Shown: positions 9,447 through 61,133 of the stretch, one piece after another
Numbering within the stretch: position 1 is the first letter of the stretch
Layout of the letters: every line of letters starts with the position of its first letter
NCBI GenBank assembly: GCA_900545175.1
Contig: UQYF01000005.1
Span: 29,890-93,889 of the forward strand
Origin: an uncultured Eubacteriales bacterium
GTDB taxonomy: Bacteria; Bacillota; Clostridia; Lachnospirales; Lachnospiraceae
DNA: 64,000 nt
Direction: 5' to 3'
Notes under the pieces: generated by a model
Databases searched by the model: none
What the model was told of the DNA's origin: nothing
What the model saw: only the letters and a program-made list of their open reading frames with translations
Position numbers and translations under genes: made by a program

Positions 9447-9599
9447 AAATGCTGTGCAGGACTTAAAAATTCAGCTTGACAATTCATATGCGTTTAATTA
9501 TTATTAGTTCATAAAATAAGAGATGCGAAGCATCAATTTTTTATGAGCATGAAGCGAAAGCGGATTGCAGATATCATTGACTATATGAAAAAGCTATGA

Positions 9600-9905
9600 A
9601 GGGAAGAAGTAGATATTTTTAGGAGCCTACAGAGAGCTGCCGGGTGGTGAGAGGCGCACAGGTAACGGAATATTGAATACATCCTAGAGCATTGCACCGA
9701 AAGAAAGATAATTTTTTTAGTAGGCTGTGACGGCAGCACCCGTTATAGTGCAGAGGTATCGATTAAAAGTGTGAAGGATTACTTCTGAAACAGCTTTTGG
9801 TCTGTACTTGGTGAGGCACCGGATGTGAGTTCGGTGTGAAGTAAGGTGGTAACACGTTTATATACGTCCTTACAGTAGTAATCGCTGCTGTAAGGATTTT
9901 TTTAT
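9600..9905 (+). ncRNA. T-box leader riboswitch (likely tyrosine-specific) controlling tyrS
   Basis: Stem-I like region with AGAGAG/GGTGAGAG; candidate specifier loop GAA-UAC-A; T-box-like AAGGTGGTAACACG; terminator TCCTTACAG...CTGTAAGGA plus T7 at about 9868-9905. Confidence 0.55.
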
Positions 9906-17399: not shown

Positions 17400-17468
17400 G
17401 TCTGGGACAGGTGTCTGACCCCTTGTCCCAGTTTTGGGACATAGGGGTCAGACACCCCTGTCCCAGAC
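17400..17468. other. 69-nt composite imperfect palindrome (24-26 bp outer stem enclosing a 7-bp inner hairpin) with no T-tract, between the ABC exporter stop and the next start codon
   Basis: GTCTGGGACAGGTGTCTGACCCCT / TGTCCCAGttttGGGACA / AGGGGTCAGACACCCCTGTCCCAGAC, read directly. Confidence 0.6.
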
Positions 17469-17484
17469 AGAATGGAGATGGATT

Positions 17485-19479
17485 ATGAAGCGTCTGATTA
17501 ACAGCAGGAAGGATTTGTTCACTATCCCTAATCTTATGGGGTATTTTCGTATAATACTTATTCCTATATTCATGGCGGTCTATATAGGAGCTGACAACAG
17601 GGCGGATTATATCGCTGCCGCAGTCATACTTGGAATATCCGGGCTTACGGACTGTTTTGACGGAAAAGTGGCAAGACATTTTAATATGATAACTGAGTGG
17701 GGCAAGGTGTTAGACCCTGTGGCGGATAAGCTTACGCAGGCGGCAGTGTTTATAAGCCTGTCCTTCCGCTATCCTACGATGAGATATCTTGTGATACTCT
17801 TTGTCGTGAAGGAAATGTTCATGGGTATTATGGGTGCTGTCATGTTAAAAAAAGGAAGCATGATGGACGGAGCAAGGTGGTACGGAAAGCTCTGCACTGC
17901 AGTGCTGTACGGAGCGATGTTCATGCTGCTGCTGGTAGTTGACCTCTCATATTTTGCGGCGGGGCTTATTATCTCAATCTGCATTATCATGAACGTCTTT
18001 TCGTTTGCATGTTACATAGTGTACTATGTGCGCGTGCTTATGAATAAGCCTGTTACAAGCGGAAAAATTAAGATGTGGAAGCCTGTGACGACAATTATCG
18101 GTTTTGTCCTTGTGTATGTGGTTATCAATCTGGCGATAGCGGTTGTAGGAAGCTCTAAGCAGCCGGAGTATAATGGCGATAAGCAGGTTGCAATGCAAAG
18201 TACTGATGGCACTGAGCGGGCGGTCATTGTCGAGGATAATTCGGATGCACTTTTAAGCAGAGTAAGGATGATACAGAATGCACAGTCGGAAATAATTCTT
18301 TCTACCTTTGATTTTATGTCGGATGAGAGCGGCAGGATAATGATTGGCGCACTGTGTGAAGCGGCTGAAAAAGGAGTGAAGGTGGAGGTGCTTGTCGATG
18401 GCTTTGACGGTGTTCTTCATATGAAGTGGAATCCTTACTTTTATGCATTGTCTGCGAATGAAAATGTAACTCTGATGATGTACAATGAGATAAATCCGTT
18501 CACTATGTACAAAGGCATGGCGAGAATGCATGACAAGTATCTTGTTGTGGACAGACAGATTTATATGCTTGGCGGAAGGAATACATTTAACTATTTCCTC
18601 GGAGACTACAGTAATTACAAAAATTATGACAGGGATGTTCTTGTGTGGAGGAGAAAGCCGGCAGCACAGCAGGAAAATGCGTCTGTCAATGAGCTTTTAG
18701 CTTACTATGAGACGGTCAAAAACAGCGGTGAATGCAGCAGTTTCGCACATGGAAAAAGTCTTGCGGACAGATACTGTGTGAAGCACGCTATGGAGCGTAT
18801 AGAGGAGGAATATGAAAAATACTGCTCTGAACATGAAGAGCTTTCAGATGAGTATTCCTATGAGGATAATACGTTTCAGGTTGAAAGTATAGCTCTGCTT
18901 TCAAATCCGGTGAATGCAGGAGTGAAGGAGCCTGTTGTATGGCATAAGCTTATGAGCCTTATAGGCAGTGCTAAGGAGTCCGTAAAGCTGCACACACCAT
19001 ACATAATCTGTAATGATATGATGTATGATACTATAAAGGACGCAGCCGCAGGAAAGGAAGTCACGGTAATGACTAATTCCGTTGCGAACAATGGCAACAG
19101 CTTCGGAGCGGCAGACCTTGAAAAGAACAGGGACAGAATGCTTGACACAGGTGTAACTTTATTAGAATACGATGGTGGAGTGTCATACCACGGAAAGAGC
19201 ATGGTGATTGACGATGACATATCCGTGGTCGGATCGTTCAATATGGATATGAGGAGCGCATATCTTGACACAGAGCTTATGCTTGTGATTAAAAGTGATG
19301 AGCTGAATGCACAGCTTCGTACTATCATGTCGGAATATGAAAAATCGGCGGTAATAGCATTGCTGGATGGCAGATATGACAATCCTAACAATGTTGTGCC
19401 GCAGGAGATAACAACAACGCGCAAGGTGAGAAAAAATATCATAAAGATGCTGTTTTACTGGGCGAGGTTTCTGTTCTGA
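17485..19479 (+). CDS. Fusion protein: N-terminal CDP-alcohol phosphatidyltransferase domain plus a C-terminal phospholipase-D/cardiolipin-synthase-like domain with two HKD motifs
   Basis: CDP-OH-P motif DGKVARHFNMITEWGKVLDPVADKL; HKD motifs HDKYLVVD and HGKSMVIDDD; N-terminal TM helices; the ORF is open from 17434 but the RBS-compatible start is ATG 17485. Confidence 0.75.
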   Translation: MKRLINSRKDLFTIPNLMGYFRIILIPIFMAVYIGADNRADYIAAAVILGISGLTDCFDGKVARHFNMITEWGKVLDPVADKLTQAAVFISLSFRYPTMRYLVILFVVKEMFMGIMGAVMLKKGSMMDGARWYGKLCTAVLYGAMFMLLLVVDLSYFAAGLIISICIIMNVFSFACYIVYYVRVLMNKPVTSGKIKMWKPVTTIIGFVLVYVVINLAIAVVGSSKQPEYNGDKQVAMQSTDGTERAVIVEDNSDALLSRVRMIQNAQSEIILSTFDFMSDESGRIMIGALCEAAEKGVKVEVLVDGFDGVLHMKWNPYFYALSANENVTLMMYNEINPFTMYKGMARMHDKYLVVDRQIYMLGGRNTFNYFLGDYSNYKNYDRDVLVWRRKPAAQQENASVNELLAYYETVKNSGECSSFAHGKSLADRYCVKHAMERIEEEYEKYCSEHEELSDEYSYEDNTFQVESIALLSNPVNAGVKEPVVWHKLMSLIGSAKESVKLHTPYIICNDMMYDTIKDAAAGKEVTVMTNSVANNGNSFGAADLEKNRDRMLDTGVTLLEYDGGVSYHGKSMVIDDDISVVGSFNMDMRSAYLDTELMLVIKSDELNAQLRTIMSEYEKSAVIALLDGRYDNPNNVVPQEITTTRKVRKNIIKMLFYWARFLF

Positions 19480-19535
19480 AATGTGTGAAGTTTAGTGCTC
19501 AAATTACAAATGTATATCAGAAAATTATAAAGTAT

Positions 19536-19567
19536 GCGGCATAGTCGGTTTTGGCTATGCCGTTTTG
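19536..19567 (+). terminator. Intrinsic terminator after the PgsA-PLD fusion gene
   Basis: CGGCATAG-loop-CTATGCCG followed by TTTTGC. Confidence 0.6.
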
Positions 19568-19705
19568 CAAAAAAAGTAAAAAGCAGTGGCGGATTGTGAA
19601 GATACTTAGGAATGTGTCGGACAAATACTATAAAGTTTAAATTGCATAGTGTTGTGTATAATGATAGAATTAGCTGAAAGATTTTATGAAAATGGAGATT
19701 GCGTT

Positions 19706-24904: not shown

Positions 24905-24979
24905 GAGAATCTATTATAAGTTCTAATATTGTGCGGTTTTAAAGGGTTTGCGTTAGTGTGAAAAGCTACGAAAAAGGAT

Positions 24980-25038
24980 ATGTAACTAACACGTAACTAA
25001 CAGGTAACTAACACACGTAACTAACAAATAACTAACAA
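24980..25038 (+). repeat. Five direct copies of GTAACTAACA (the last is ATAACTAACA) phased at 11/11/13/11 nt, in the 3' region of the GGGtGRT gene
   Basis: Copies start at 24982, 24993, 25004, 25017 and 25028, read directly. Confidence 0.8.
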
Positions 25039-25043
25039 AAATA

Positions 25044-25088
25044 AAGAGGGTCACAAGCACTGAAAAGTGTTTGAGATCCTCTTTTTAA
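25044..25088 (+). terminator. Probable intrinsic terminator (imperfect stem plus T5)
   Basis: AGAGGGTCACAAGCAC...GTGTTTGAGATCCTCT followed by TTTTT. Confidence 0.45.
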
Positions 25089-25537
25089 TAATGTGAAAAC
25101 AGCCTCAACCAAGCATCTGATATAAGATTATTTTATCGGTTTAGGTAAAGCGGATTGCGAATGTCCGCTTTACAGAGCATCAGTATAACAAAAATAAAAA
25201 TGCATTTGCATTTATAGAGCATATGTTCGGCAATAGCCAAGATGGTAAAAATATACATATAAAAATATAAAATGATTGCTTGAAACACATGATAACTCAT
25301 GAATTGCCGGAAAGACTTGAAGTATGCCGAATATGAAGTATAATAAATTTGATACACATGAAAAATGAAGCCGCAGTAAAACTTCTAAAGAAAGATGTGA
25401 GCATTTTTATAAGAGATTTTTGCTGCACACAGAGCAGGTTTGAAAGAGAAACTTTCAAACTATGTATTGGTGGCAGTACGGTGAGCGGTGCATGCAGTAT
25501 GCAGAGGGATAAAAAATGAAAGCGAGGGAGAAATATT

Positions 25538-32435: not shown

Positions 32436-33494
32436 ATGGGAATTATCAGAGAAGTGTTCGGACATGACAGCCATGGAGCTACAGTATATTCATACACTGT
32501 GACCAATGACCATGGAACCAGAATAAGACTTATTGAGATGGGAGCAGCATTGCAGTCACTTGAGGTTGCCGACAGGGATGGCAATTTTGCGGATGTTGTG
32601 CTTGGATATGACAATGTCGCCCAGTATGAGACCGCTAACGGTGAGAATTTTGGAGTTGTAGTAGGACGTAACGCCAACCGCATAAAGGACGCACGCTTTA
32701 TGATAAAAGGAAAAGAATACAAGCTTGCGAAAAATAGCGGAGAGAATAATCTTCACAGCGGTCCGGATGGGTACAGCTCAAGAAGATGGGAAAGTGAGAT
32801 TGCTGATAACGAGAGAGGACAAGCGGTAAGATTTTCTCTTGTAAGTCCGGACGGAGACCAGGGAATGCCTGGAGAACTTCATGTCTCTGTCACATATATT
32901 CTCACTGACGATGACAGCGTGATTCTTGAATATGAGGGTGTTGCGGGTGATGACACTATAGTGAATCTTACCAATCATTCTTACTTTAATCTTGCAGGAC
33001 ATGCTTCAGGTACAGTATATGACCAGAAGATGTGGCTTGCGGCAAGTGAGTTCACTCCTTCGGATGCAAGCCTTATCCCGACAGGTGAGTACAGAAGTGT
33101 CAAGGGAACTCCAATGGATTTTACAGAGCCTAAGGCTATCGGGGAAGATATAAATGCTGATTATGAACCTCTTATTCTTGCAGGAGGCTATGATCATAAT
33201 TTTGTCTTAGATAACAAGGGCGAAGTGGAGCTTGCAGGAAGTCTTTATGATGAGAAGAGCGGAAGATTTATGGAAGTGTTCACACAGATGCCGGGTATTC
33301 AGATATATACAGGCAATTTCCTAAGTGGAAAATCAAGAGGCAAGGATGACTGCTATTATGAGAAGCGTGACGGAGTCTGCTTTGAGACACAGTTTTTCCC
33401 GGATGCGGTAAATAACACGGCATTTGAATCACCGGTAGTTCAGGCAGGCGTGCCGTTTGATTTCGTTACAGCATATAGATTTTCCGTAAAATAA
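32436..33494 (+). CDS. galM: Aldose 1-epimerase (galactose mutarotase)
   Basis: Mutarotase motifs (NLHSGP...GYSSRRW, FFPDA, catalytic His/Glu context). Confidence 0.8.
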   Translation: MGIIREVFGHDSHGATVYSYTVTNDHGTRIRLIEMGAALQSLEVADRDGNFADVVLGYDNVAQYETANGENFGVVVGRNANRIKDARFMIKGKEYKLAKNSGENNLHSGPDGYSSRRWESEIADNERGQAVRFSLVSPDGDQGMPGELHVSVTYILTDDDSVILEYEGVAGDDTIVNLTNHSYFNLAGHASGTVYDQKMWLAASEFTPSDASLIPTGEYRSVKGTPMDFTEPKAIGEDINADYEPLILAGGYDHNFVLDNKGEVELAGSLYDEKSGRFMEVFTQMPGIQIYTGNFLSGKSRGKDDCYYEKRDGVCFETQFFPDAVNNTAFESPVVQAGVPFDFVTAYRFSVK

Positions 33495-33654
33495 TTTATA
33501 AAATAGAGATGCCAAGCATCGTTTTTATGAGTGGGAAGCGAAAGCGGATTGTGAATATCGTTTACAATAGTGTTGCTGTAAATGACATTGAAAAGATTAA
33601 TAATATTTAATTTTCTGTTATATATGCAATAAAATGAACTGCGATGTGGAGATT

Positions 33655-44339: not shown

Positions 44340-45344
44340 TTAATTATTGTCAGCCGGAGCCTTTCCTACAGATTCACGCAACACAACTGTTGAGTGGAGA
44401 AGCATTGTGCTCACAGGAAGTCCCGACATTAAATCTTTTAGAAGAGCAAATGCTGATTTGCCAAGAGCAAACCGCTCCTGCCTTATGGTGGTTAAAGGAG
44501 GTGCAAGATATTTTGCTACGGGAAGGTCATCAAAGCCTGTTACACTGACATCCTCCGGAACGCGGAGTCCGAGCTTGTGAAGTTCATTTATTGTTCTTGC
44601 CGCAATCAGGTCGCTTGCACACATGATTGCTGTGGCACCTTTATCTGTGAAAGACTTGACAAAATCGGACACTGTCTCGTCAGGGTAGTAGACAGTATGT
44701 CCGATGAGCTGCATATCAAGGTCAAGCTCAGCTTCGTTCATTGCCTGTATGAAGCCCTGATATCTGAGTGCGGATATGTAGCTGTTCTTTGAACCGTTTA
44801 GAAAGGCTATCTTTTTGTGACCGTTTTCTTTAAGGTAATGTATGAGTGTCGAAAAACCGACATGAATATCCGTTCCCACATATGCAATATGCTCATTGGA
44901 AATATAGTTGTCGAAGAGAACAGTAGGGATTGTAGTCTTTTCAAGCTGCTTCATATATGCCTCATTGAGCTCAAGCCCAAGGAAAAAGGCACCTGAATAG
45001 CCGTTCTGTTTCATAAGGCTGTCGTAGGTCTGCCATGTCTGGAAATACTGGTCTATGGGAACAATATCCACCTCAAACTGAGCCTCACTTGCAACGAGGC
45101 GGAAGCCTGCTATAAGCTCATAACCGAACTGGTTGATATTCGCATATTCCATATTCTCTACTATAATACATACCTTCTGCCTTGAAGCCGGCTTCTTCTC
45201 CTTGATAACATAGCCCATCTCAATTGCGGTATCTAAGACCTGCTGACGCATCTCCTCACTGATATCGCTGGCACCATGCAGTCCCTTAGAGACTGTACTT
45301 ATAGAAATGCCGAGTCTTTCGGCGATGTCCTTTATAGTTACCAT
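44340..45344 (-). CDS. LacI-family transcriptional regulator
   Basis: N-terminal HTH (VTIKDIAERLGISISTVSKGL) plus a periplasmic-binding-fold domain; RBS AAGAGGA. Confidence 0.85.
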   Translation of the reverse strand: MVTIKDIAERLGISISTVSKGLHGASDISEEMRQQVLDTAIEMGYVIKEKKPASRQKVCIIVENMEYANINQFGYELIAGFRLVASEAQFEVDIVPIDQYFQTWQTYDSLMKQNGYSGAFFLGLELNEAYMKQLEKTTIPTVLFDNYISNEHIAYVGTDIHVGFSTLIHYLKENGHKKIAFLNGSKNSYISALRYQGFIQAMNEAELDLDMQLIGHTVYYPDETVSDFVKSFTDKGATAIMCASDLIAARTINELHKLGLRVPEDVSVTGFDDLPVAKYLAPPLTTIRQERFALGKSAFALLKDLMSGLPVSTMLLHSTVVLRESVGKAPADNN

Positions 45345-58949: not shown

Positions 58950-59320
58950 GTCTACCAGTTGGCTGAATAATCGCGGCTGCATATGTCGAAAGACCGCAGG
59001 TGAGGAAAGTCCGGGCTTCATAGGGCAGGATGCCGGATAACGTCCGGTGGAGGTGACTCTAAGACCAGTGCAACAGAAATATACCGCCACAGGCGTAATG
59101 CCGAGGCTCCGCAAGGACGTGGTAAGGGCGGAAGGGCAGTGTAAGAGACTACCGCCTGTCTGGTAACAGACAGGGCACATGTAAACTCCATCCGAAGCAA
59201 GACCGAATAAGAGACAGTGACGTGGCCCGCCAGTCTCAGGTTGGTCGCTTGAACCTGTTGGCAACAGCAGGTCTAGATAGATGATTATTCACGACATAAC
59301 CCGGCTTACAGGCTGACTGG
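58950..59320 (+). ncRNA. rnpB: RNase P RNA (bacterial type B)
   Basis: GAGGAAAGTCCGGGCTTCATAGGGCAGGATGCCGGATAACGTCCGG (P4 5' strand) ... AGGGCGGAAGGGCAG ... ACATAACCCGGCTTACAGG (P4 3' strand); P1 pairing of CCAGTTGGCTG with CAGGCTGACTGG. Confidence 0.85.
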
Positions 59321-59348
59321 TGGTTATTTACCAATAGGAGATTTTTCG

Positions 59349-61133
59349 ATGTATAATCGTATTTCTGATATGCATGATGACAGTAGCAGCATGAAGTTTG
59401 CCAAGGCAGTTTTACAAAAAGATTTTGTTATATTGAATGCGGAGGAAGCCCTATATAGTTTTTTGGGTAAGAACTCCGCATCTTTTTTCAATAAGCTTAT
59501 TCATCCTGATTACGAAGAGGAATTCCTTTTGGCATGCCATGGGATGAAGCCGGGAGAGAAGTATAGCATAATAACACTTATGCGTAACATGAATGATGAG
59601 TATTGTCCTGTTGATATACATATTAACATGTCCATGCCGATGGAAAATAATGACTGTTTTTATACAGTTGATATATATTGCATTGATATGATTGAGACAT
59701 CATTCCTGACTAATCAGCAGAAGATGGATAAGTATAGAATGTTCATGGAGATAAGTGGACTTGTATATATGGAATTCTGGCCGGAGACAGGAAGAATTGT
59801 TTTTTATGACTATGCAGTGAGAAAATCACATATCCTATATGAGAATAATATTGAAAAATGGTATAAGGATGTATTACAGTTCGCCATAGATAAAGGAAGC
59901 AATAAGGCTGAGATACAGAATCTGTATAATAGGCTTAAGAATCTTGAAAATCAGTTTTTGTGCACAATAAAGACAGGCTTTATGAATGAAGGGCATGTCC
60001 CGGAGACTTTGGTTATCAATGCAAGATATATTTCAAGACATAATGCGGACGTTATAGTGGGGATTGTGAACAGGAAAGACATAACGGACGATGACATTCC
60101 ATACTATCTTACGAAGGCAGGAAAGGATGCAGCGACAGGGCTTTTAAATAAGCGTGCTCTTATAGAGTATGCAACAGACAGGCTGGCAGATGCATGCGAT
60201 AATAAGCTGTATATGATACTTATAGACATAGATGACTTTAAGAGTATCAATGACACCTATGGTCATCTTATGGGAGATAAGGCGATAATTGTTCTTGCAG
60301 AGTCACTTACGGAGGCTCTTGATGGAAGAGGTGTTGTCGGAAGGTTTGGCGGAGATGAATTTTTTATTTTGACTGAGGACATTCCTGATGAACAGCAGCT
60401 TAGACTATTCTTAAAAGCAATGTTGTCACAGCTTCGCTATAATCAGGTTAAGAAGCTTAAGAATGTGCGTTTTACACTTTCGATGGGAATATCGCAATAT
60501 CCTCAGGCGGGAAATAGGTTTGACGACTTGTTCAAGCTTGCAGATAAGGCATTATATATTGCAAAAGATAAAGGCAAGAACAGGTATATCATATACAGGC
60601 CGCAGCTTCACGACTCGATAGATGTCATAGGAAGGCAGACTGAGACGGGCGGTTATCCTGTATACATTAAGGCACTTAAGGATGTCGTGAGAAATATTAT
60701 TGTCAATAAATGCAATGATATAAAAGCAATTCTAGAGGAGATTAAGAAAGCATTCAGTCTCGGTGCGGCAGCTGTGTACGGCATGACAGATTATAAAGCT
60801 ATAGTCTATACGGATGGATGTCCGGAAGGACTTTTGGATGTGGCTTTTATGGGAAGTGATTCGTACAAGGCACTTTTAGCAGTGGATAATGTGCTTGTTC
60901 TCAATAATTTAAGCTCGATTGAACGCGAGGATGAGAGCATATACACAAAGCTTGCGTCAACCGGCTGCTGCTCATATATAAGCATACAGCTTCCCGAAGC
61001 GCAAATGCCGGAGTATATCATAGCATTTTATATGTTCGGGATGAAACATAAGTGGGGAAATGTCGAGATTGACTATCTTACAATCCTTGCGGAAGCTATA
61101 TACAGCGCTCTTAAGAACGATAAACAGAAATAA
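59349..61133 (+). CDS. Diguanylate cyclase (GGDEF domain) with N-terminal sensory (PAS/GAF-like) regions
   Basis: RFGGDEFFIL active-site motif, inhibitory-site-like RxxD upstream. Confidence 0.8.
   Translation: MYNRISDMHDDSSSMKFAKAVLQKDFVILNAEEALYSFLGKNSASFFNKLIHPDYEEEFLLACHGMKPGEKYSIITLMRNMNDEYCPVDIHINMSMPMENNDCFYTVDIYCIDMIETSFLTNQQKMDKYRMFMEISGLVYMEFWPETGRIVFYDYAVRKSHILYENNIEKWYKDVLQFAIDKGSNKAEIQNLYNRLKNLENQFLCTIKTGFMNEGHVPETLVINARYISRHNADVIVGIVNRKDITDDDIPYYLTKAGKDAATGLLNKRALIEYATDRLADACDNKLYMILIDIDDFKSINDTYGHLMGDKAIIVLAESLTEALDGRGVVGRFGGDEFFILTEDIPDEQQLRLFLKAMLSQLRYNQVKKLKNVRFTLSMGISQYPQAGNRFDDLFKLADKALYIAKDKGKNRYIIYRPQLHDSIDVIGRQTETGGYPVYIKALKDVVRNIIVNKCNDIKAILEEIKKAFSLGAAAVYGMTDYKAIVYTDGCPEGLLDVAFMGSDSYKALLAVDNVLVLNNLSSIEREDESIYTKLASTGCCSYISIQLPEAQMPEYIIAFYMFGMKHKWGNVEIDYLTILAEAIYSALKNDKQK

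Follow-up and report, generated by a model that had tools for sequence, protein, structure and literature searches.

Why should one short sequence recur, always on the same strand, between unrelated genes of a gut bacterium? The question arises in a 64,000-nt stretch (the window) of contig UQYF01000005.1, from an uncultured member of a common gut Lachnospiraceae lineage near 'Firmicutes bacterium CAG:882' (Agathobacter ~83%). The window holds exactly four copies of the 8-mer GCGGATTG (9560, 19589, 25150 and 33544), each on the + strand and between open reading frames (ORFs). A first-pass annotation had counted four copies of a 12-mer, which is right for the 8-mer; the 12-mer GCGGATTGYGAA itself is exact at three sites, the copy at 9560 reading GCGGATTGCAGA with two mismatches. 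Its further claim, that chance would yield a 12-mer far less than once in 64 kb, held up (three occurrences versus 0.00 expected in dinucleotide-preserving shuffles), and of the three identities it had offered (a regulator binding site, a small repeated non-coding element, or the 5' end of a family of leader RNAs) the second proved correct. That the motif belongs to a structured interspersed repeat is well supported. The best joint explanation, which we consider probable, is a structured, protein-less interspersed repeat that carries a module of the type found in the Clostridiales-1 RNA motif, is mobilised in trans, and is represented in the window by decayed passengers.

The repeat family and its copies in the window

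The motif has relatives well beyond this contig. A scan of species-representative genomes with a 21-mer taken from the copies at 9560 and 33544 returned three true relatives, in metagenome-assembled genomes of Eubacteriales/Lachnospiraceae and in unrelated gene contexts, and a metagenome scan with AAGCGGATTGYGAATRTC returned at least 120 loci, mostly from human gut and with very diverse flanks. Single loci are denoted by L and a number, and the listed loci in the counts below are these metagenome loci. When copies are aligned on the motif, similarity extends to the left but breaks off sharply on the right within a few bases, after CCGCTTGAC or CCGCTTTAC. Full-length alignments delimit an element of ~163 nt with sharp ends (left TTTAACCGAATCAAG, right GCGGATTGCGAATATCCGCTTGAC) and at least three subfamilies, of which subfamily A reads TTTAACCGAATCAAGTAAGTCCCCTGCTTCAATTGCGAAAAGCAATAAGCAGTGGGTGGGGACTTGCTTGTATCAGGAGGAGTGCAAGCTCCTTCTGATAAACTGCGGAGCAGTTATTCGGTTATGAGCAAGTAGCGAAGCGGATTGCGAATATCCGCTTGAC. 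The element encodes no protein. Near-identical copies stand at unrelated loci, which points to recent copying and not to ancient regulatory conservation.

The subfamilies differ in the sequence of their helices and retain the pairing. In the RNAalifold prediction a helix P1 closes P2 (with P2a), P3 and P4 in a four-helix junction, and a module forms the 3' end; 18 of the 51 pairs carry compensatory changes, spread across P1, P2, P2a, P3 and P4. One full-length copy folds at -77.2 kcal/mol (z=-8.0). G.T combinations outnumber A.C in the helices by 48 to 7, and the strand given here is therefore the structured one. Besides full-length copies there are 'mini' forms, in which P1 closes P4 only and the tail follows, 'micro' forms, in which the left end is fused to the tail, and copies of the terminal piece alone; at one locus the form varies with the sample, micro in L118 and mini in L055. 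In these four forms the repeat is abundant among Lachnospiraceae/Eubacteriales of the human gut. A plasmid collection yielded no match, and phage collections held copies only in faecal 'Bacteriophage sp.' contigs without annotation and in a few from IMG/VR, which are uninformative on origin.

The window holds two mini copies (c1 and c2), a terminal remnant (c3) and an isolated 12-mer (c4):

9508..9582, + strand: c1, 'mini' copy (from nhmmer, fold and empty sites)
9509-9519 with 9537-9546, + strand: P1 closing helix of c1 (predicted fold)
9522-9526 with 9530-9534, + strand: P4 hairpin of c1 (predicted fold)
9541-9576, + strand: conserved module of c1, with inner helices 9547-9549/9566-9568 and 9554-9555/9560-9561
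9560..9571, + strand: core motif of c1, degenerate GCGGATTGCAGA, with AG in place of the 3' GA in the tandem G.A loop
19589..19600, + strand: c4, exact 12-mer alone, GCGGATTGTGAA (chance expectation 0.00)
25145..25175, + strand: c3, 3'-end remnant AAAGCGGATTGCGAATGTCCGCTTTAC (from nhmmer), with core motif at 25150-25161
33494..33566, + strand: c2, 'mini' copy (from nhmmer, fold and empty sites)
33494-33503 with 33523-33532, + strand: P1 of c2 (predicted fold)
33508-33520, + strand: P4 of c2
33526-33559, + strand: module of c2
33544-33555, + strand: core motif of c2

Two nhmmer profiles, one of the module and one of the full-length element, were built solely from metagenome copies. The module profile recovers c1 (9538-9568, E=1.9e-6), c2 (33524-33559, E=1.9e-7) and c3 (25148-25173, E=2.1e-9), and the full-length profile finds the same three at 9523-9575 (model 103-155, E=2.4e-6), 33510-33559 (model 104-155, E=2.6e-4) and 25147-25172 (model 137-162, E=1.2e-5). 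The kinship proposed for all four copies thus extends to three of them: c4 scores E=2.5 with the module profile, has no match to the full-length profile and no stable fold (z=-0.7), and shares nothing with the others beyond the 12-mer. It is at best, and probably, a decayed relic. Predicted folds of the others reach -16.7 kcal/mol (c1, z=-2.1), -18.0 kcal/mol (c2, z=-2.9) and -16.6 kcal/mol (the 11-bp hairpin of c3 at 25147-25174, z=-4.3). c1 is identical across four same-species contigs, and its boundaries are uncertain by ~4-6 nt (left edge 9508-9512, right edge 9576 or 9582).

Two further sets of matches were set aside as chance: a fifth, one-mismatch match to the 12-mer at 60059, inside a coding region, and profile matches at 45109-45144 on the - strand, which are not colinear with the model and fall within a coding region that encodes a LacI-type regulator by the look of its sequence.

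The mini copies carry just P1, P4 and the module in the predicted fold, and this changes how they are read. The ~60-nt blocks at 9519-9580 and 33503-33560 are homologous, as first described, and each does contain a 5-bp hairpin followed by a T-run; the description of these as a terminator hairpin plus a conserved box has to be replaced. In that fold the hairpin corresponds to P4, the T-run supplies the 3' strand of the A/U-rich closing helix P1 (ATAAAA/TTTTAT), and the box is the Clostridiales-1-type module. An intrinsic terminator of the upstream gene, with the box as an unrelated conserved sequence, is accordingly a highly improbable explanation. A consensus scan does flag 9522-9534 and 33508-33520, but the stem has just 5 bp around a loop of 3 nt, the predicted pairing partner of the T-run is an A-run upstream, the c1 hairpin lies after the promoter and before the T-box of tyrS, an essential gene, and full-length copies have ATTCGGTT at this place and no T-run.

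Single loci add some detail. L075 (around 1422+) is a full-length copy interrupted between P1 and the tail module by a 47-nt insertion that forms a hairpin, an element nested in an element, and tandem or nested copies also occur at L112 (around 5353+), L035 and L122. At L142/L151 (IMG/VR, viral-classed) a mini copy at ~810 lies ~90 nt downstream of the 3' end of a tRNA gene and its terminator. At L050 and L057, long ORFs of MATE type by the look of their sequence have spurious N-terminal extensions through the element (...KRIANIR...), so the repeat can mislead start-codon calls.

The 3' module and Clostridiales-1

The module is shared by the family, the window copies and the Clostridiales-1 seeds, in the form ATGAG-NNNG-NAGCG-[0 or 17-nt hairpin]-AGCGGATT-NN-GAAT. 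Its parts are an outer helix, the tandem G.A/A.G loop, a helix of 4 bp (GCAA/UUGC, with GAAA/UUUC and GGAU/AUCC among the other forms in the alignment with the seeds), an internal loop GNA/GGA and a mini-hairpin GC-GAA(A)-GC. The 12-mer GCGGATTGYGAA is the 3' strand of the module, contributing GC to the inner helix, GGA to the internal loop, UUGY to the 4-bp helix, and GA-A to the G.A loop and closing pair; it is the most conserved stretch because it is the 3' strand of three stacked features.

We examined covariation in an alignment of 14 hand-picked sequences, comprising five published seeds (Weinberg et al., 2010; PMC2864571, supplement 198) together with family and window copies. Under the Clostridiales-1-type module fold 86% of cells are paired, both-side changes affect 7 pairs and 27 cells, and the covariation score is 0.268 versus 0.119 in shuffles (0/500 reach it), with slid controls at or below 0.076. 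A simple 8-bp hairpin AAGCGGAT/ATCCGCTT had been proposed at c3. The hairpin does form there, with 11 bp, and is the sole possible fold of c3 because this remnant lacks the ATGAG 5' strand; the simple 8-bp form shows no covariation above shuffles (179/500 reach its score). For the same reason, a simple hairpin without covariation, we dropped the likeness of GCGGA-TTGCGAAT-TCCGC to a tRNA T-arm. A hammerhead-like CUGAUGA...GAAA core was also rejected, as the essential G5 and A15.1 context is absent and no Rfam ribozyme matches.

The full-length copy L015 gives the sole meaningful sub-threshold Rfam match, to Clostridiales-1 (RF01699; 27.6 bits, E=3.6e-4), exactly on the tail, and the RF01699 consensus UGAGcAuGaAGc[hairpin]gCGGAaUgCGAAu aligns with ATGAGCAAGTAGCGAAGCGGATTGCGAAT. 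The gathering score of this family is 48 bits; at that threshold neither the window nor any of eight full-length loci has a match, c1 reaching 10.5 bits (E=5.7) and c2 giving none at E<=10. From shared sequence and pairing, the module is homologous to the third stem of the Clostridiales-1 RNA motif, with the same tandem G.A loop. The two elements are further alike in coming from human gut Clostridiales/Lachnospiraceae, in being multi-copy within genomes and ~165 nt long, in having several helices with strong covariation, and in having no assigned function. They differ in layout. In the four-stem Clostridiales-1 structure the module lies inside the junction, within the outer closing helix, whereas here P1 encloses P2, P3 and P4 and the module follows 3' of P1, sharing a strand with it; the 17-nt inner hairpin of the module is cut here to GC-GAA(A)-GC; and the remaining helices are without evident sequence homology. 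Because the module is shared while threshold and architecture are not, we file the element as a relative of Clostridiales-1, not a member.

Clostridiales-1 itself was described as not cis-regulatory and of unknown function, and its seed alignment has many copies per genome (Weinberg et al., 2010; PMC2864571). Under other names, too, the literature searched yielded no description of the present element beyond that study. The first rows of the alignment in supplement 198 of PMC2864571 are low-complexity GCAUG-repeat environmental sequences that are unconvincing as members and may depress the specificity of the family model.

The module also bears on whether the conserved stretch encodes a small basic peptide (MS.KRKRI[AV][DN]I...), a reading that we find barely credible. 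The CGG-ATT frame of c1, c2, c4, L003 and L004 gives ORFs of 18-40 codons with conservative replacements. However, c3 and the second L006 copy have a stop immediately before the motif and no start codon, the family consensus ATG AGC AAG TAG stops at codon 4, there is no Shine-Dalgarno sequence, and ATGAG is accounted for as the A-U pair, G.A loop and first G of the module.

Insertion, strand preference and a possible route of spread

If the repeat is mobile, related genomes should preserve sites that it has not entered, and c1 and c2 have such empty sites. The gene downstream of c1 is tyrS, identified by Pfam tRNA-synt_1b/SYY_C on the called gene, and c1 lies within its control region:

9476..9504, + strand: near-consensus tyrS leader promoter TTGACA-17-TATTAT, directly upstream of c1, conserved in five species
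9587..9874, + strand: tyrS T-box leader (Rfam RF00230, 110.4 bits), directly downstream of c1
9866-9897: tyrS leader terminator, completing the control region 9476-9897

Four related species, with TyrRS 97, 88, 85 and 83% identical, have a common promoter CTTGACA-17-TATAAT with the T-box ~20 nt further on; c1 is an extra ~65-70 nt between the -10 box and the T-box, present in this lineage only and absent from those four. Downstream of galM, the spacer to the next gene is 25-38 nt in relatives with 86% and 82% GalM identity and ~160 nt in the window, including c2, and a relative with 96% GalM identity has no element at its galM-metH junction. Compared with these sites, c1 and c2 are lineage-specific insertions. 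At c1 no target duplication is visible against the empty sites, within boundaries uncertain by the few nucleotides given above. Its right edge is 9576 or 9582 because the empty sites read ATTGA where the c1 locus reads ATTGAC. Family alignments show recurring flanks, TTTAA-like at the left end and TTGAC-like at the right. Near-identical copies with unrelated flanks, together with empty sites for c1 and c2, are what is generally expected of an interspersed mobile repeat.

That the motif is the 5' end of leader RNAs is true only incidentally, for c1, which landed between the tyrS promoter and the T-box. That it is a transcription-factor operator, or part of an alternative-sigma promoter, controlling downstream genes is very improbable. 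Such a site would be intergenic, on the + strand and upstream of + strand genes, as the motif is, and -35-like TTGAC/TTTAC follows the motif. Yet the flanking genes (tyrS, a GH2 beta-galactosidase, a peptidase S51 and a metH-like pair) are functionally unrelated, the copies are lineage-specific and absent in sister species, and their position relative to promoters is inconstant: the c1 motif lies downstream of a conserved promoter and predicted transcription start. At L003, TTGACT directly abuts a ribosome-binding site and ATG and therefore is not the -35 box of that gene, and right flanks have no -10 signal at a fixed distance. The motif lacks dyad symmetry; it forms one strand of a helix-loop module that shows covariation and is itself part of the 163-nt structured repeat. 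Look-alikes considered by eye, namely sigma-70, sigma-H and sigma-54 promoters and Rex, CcpA, Spo0A and RAT-antiterminator sites, misfit in spacing or conservation, and for the promoters the flanks again lack a -10 signal.

The orientation of the repeat appears to follow replication. The element strand has positive GC skew at 80 of 89 listed loci of at least 4 kb. Coding-strand and replication skew are separable at loci with genes on both strands, and we therefore used these: across 50 such loci the element lies on the inferred leading strand at 40 and on the lagging strand at 5, with 5 ambiguous (p=8e-8), while neighbour genes at the same loci are co-oriented in 46/76 cases (~61%; ~70% over the listed loci overall). 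Leading-strand placement (~89%, 40/45 informative loci) is thus a stronger bias than co-orientation with genes. A primary tie to replication predicts ~73% gene co-orientation, near that observed, whereas a primary tie to transcription predicts only ~63% leading-strand placement.

This bears on the alternative that the element is a functional RNA, either a trans-acting small RNA (sRNA) or a cis-acting module (stabiliser, processing site or protein-binding platform), selected locus by locus and spread only secondarily. Extensive covariation, the G.U excess on the sense strand, and tandem G.A and GNRA-type loops all suit it, as do the many copies that stop 5-35 nt upstream of a start codon with the ribosome-binding site between, and the position of c1 inside a transcribed leader. 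We nonetheless regard it as unlikely: the element has no promoter or terminator of its own, its flanks are unconserved, unrelated loci carry near-identical copies, orientation tracks the replication strand better than neighbour-gene direction, sister species lack c1 and c2 at the same genes, and the copies in the window have degenerated (c1 lacks the 3' G.A, reading AG for GA, and the 4-bp helix of c2 consists entirely of wobble pairs).

How, then, might an interspersed repeat without a protein spread? Terminal inverted repeats were not detected, the left end aligning with the reverse-complemented right end no better than shuffles do. ORF clustering at the 120 listed loci found no cis-linked protein (TnpB, IscB, IS110 or reverse transcriptase); the recurring ORF families are of ordinary MATE, histidine-kinase, AraC, ABC and response-regulator look by sequence inspection. 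GCGAAGC-type mini-hairpins are very stable in single-stranded DNA, and the repeat contains two. The strand bias, the missing inverted repeats, the absence of any visible duplication, the recurrent left flank rich in T (TTTA) and these mini-hairpins therefore suggest insertion of a single strand at the replication fork, which we put forward as the most likely route. The element would be non-autonomous and copied by a trans-acting factor; its folded single strand would be inserted at the fork, as with IS200/IS605 or REP-RAYT elements, possibly with target specificity for TTTA; the invariant module would serve as recognition site for the mobilising machinery; and inserted copies would be co-transcribed with host genes and then decay. 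The window copies are probably near-neutral passengers. At L112 a second, micro copy starts straight after the terminal TTGAC of the first, TTGAC standing in for the usual TTTAA left flank, which suggests that the 5 nt at both borders are equivalent, as target or core site.

Known repeats offer partial parallels. REP/BIME sequences with their RAYT, and the palindrome-associated elements derived from IS200/IS605, are short, protein-less, hairpin-rich and intergenic, lack terminal inverted repeats and any obvious target duplication, and are oriented with the replication strand. The present repeat resembles them in being protein-less, hairpin-rich, intergenic, strand-biased and free of terminal inverted repeats, in its GCGAAGC-type mini-hairpins, and in having GTAG just 5' of the terminal palindrome in its main subfamilies (GTAGCGAAGCGG...). 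It differs from them in that no Y1/HUH transposase was found near the 120 listed copies, its left end lacks a hairpin of the right-end type, and it forms a four-way junction with RNA-like internal loops and not a single palindrome; it behaves like REP or PATE elements but without their defining ends. Bcr1 of the Bacillus cereus group, Correia/NEMIS of Neisseria, and RUP and BOX of pneumococcus are structured repeats resembling miniature inverted-repeat transposable elements, with terminal inverted repeats and/or defined target duplications. With these the element shares a length of 100-170 nt, non-coding and intergenic interspersed placement, co-transcription, stable predicted folds, modularity and truncated variants; it differs in having neither terminal inverted repeats nor visible target duplication, and there is no sequence similarity.

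We extend this tentatively to the whole Clostridiales-1 superfamily: the 163-nt variant, the minis and Clostridiales-1 itself might be protein-less mobile elements whose covarying fold is the substrate for mobilisation, an idea that we think could be right though the balance is against it. We propose two versions. A folded single DNA strand could be captured at the fork by a trans-acting HUH-type enzyme, or the fold could be an omega-RNA-like scaffold that an element of IS200/IS605 type has left behind at its right end, the flank acting as guide.

Several points weigh against a mobile repeat of this kind. No transposase or mobilising enzyme was found near the 120 listed copies, which stand on metagenome contigs and not in a whole genome, and, in contrast to the ends of classical IS200/IS605 elements, the left end has no hairpin like that of the right end. 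A functional RNA would be at least as likely to show purine-rich internal loops, GNRA-like loops and tolerated G.U pairs, and Rfam files the related Clostridiales-1 motif as an sRNA (RF01699). Leading-strand assignments were derived from the GC skew of short contigs whose ORFs were crudely called and which have no mapped origin. Covariation of the module fold depends on the 14 hand-picked sequences, and within the family the T/C...A/G covariation (38 + 26 cases versus 2 exceptions) amounts in essence to a single phylogenetic event. ATTGAC, where c1 ends on the right, may be target sequence rather than element, and c4 is without statistical support as a family member.

The analysis removes a false lead, since a regulon operator, a peptide and a terminator are all very improbable readings of the motif, and it links the motif to Clostridiales-1, a structured element that is abundant in the human gut microbiome but orphan in function. 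We found no precedent in the searchable literature for three of its results: a variant architecture, below the Rfam threshold and with nested deletion derivatives; clean empty-site evidence of insertion, even between a promoter and a T-box riboswitch; and a leading-strand orientation bias exceeding that of neighbour genes. The strand bias makes the mechanism of spread testable and suggests that the 'RNA motif' may act partly as folded single-stranded DNA. Should the fold prove to be a mobilisation substrate, a long-standing orphan 'RNA motif' would be explained as part of a transposon, and copies in leaders, such as that of the tyrS T-box, would be natural experiments on mRNA structure. In Lachnospiraceae such repeats can mislead both gene callers, through spurious small ORFs and N-terminal extensions, and motif-based regulon inference. 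The interest lies in the family as a whole, in how it moves and in its strand bias; the copies in the window are probably no more than decayed passengers.

Other features of the window

Upstream of c3, at 24960-25045, five direct copies of (G)TAACTAAC are spaced by 11-13 nt downstream of a GGGtGRT gene and upstream of a terminator-like hairpin (25044-25085). This array could be iteron-like or attachment-site-like. At the same place the sister species has a different repeat, CTACCTACC, in four copies, followed by a Phage_integrase gene (L158/L160), so that an integrase island occupies the position of c3 there.

Just upstream of the c4 12-mer, at 19535-19572, a hairpin GGCATAGTCGGTTTTGGCTATGCC followed by GTTTTGC comes after a CDP-alcohol phosphatidyltransferase/PLD fusion gene (17434-19479). 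It was not flagged by a simple terminator scan and is probably the terminator of that gene. Further along, the window contains a full-length bacterial RNase P RNA of class A at 58955-59324 (290.7 bits).

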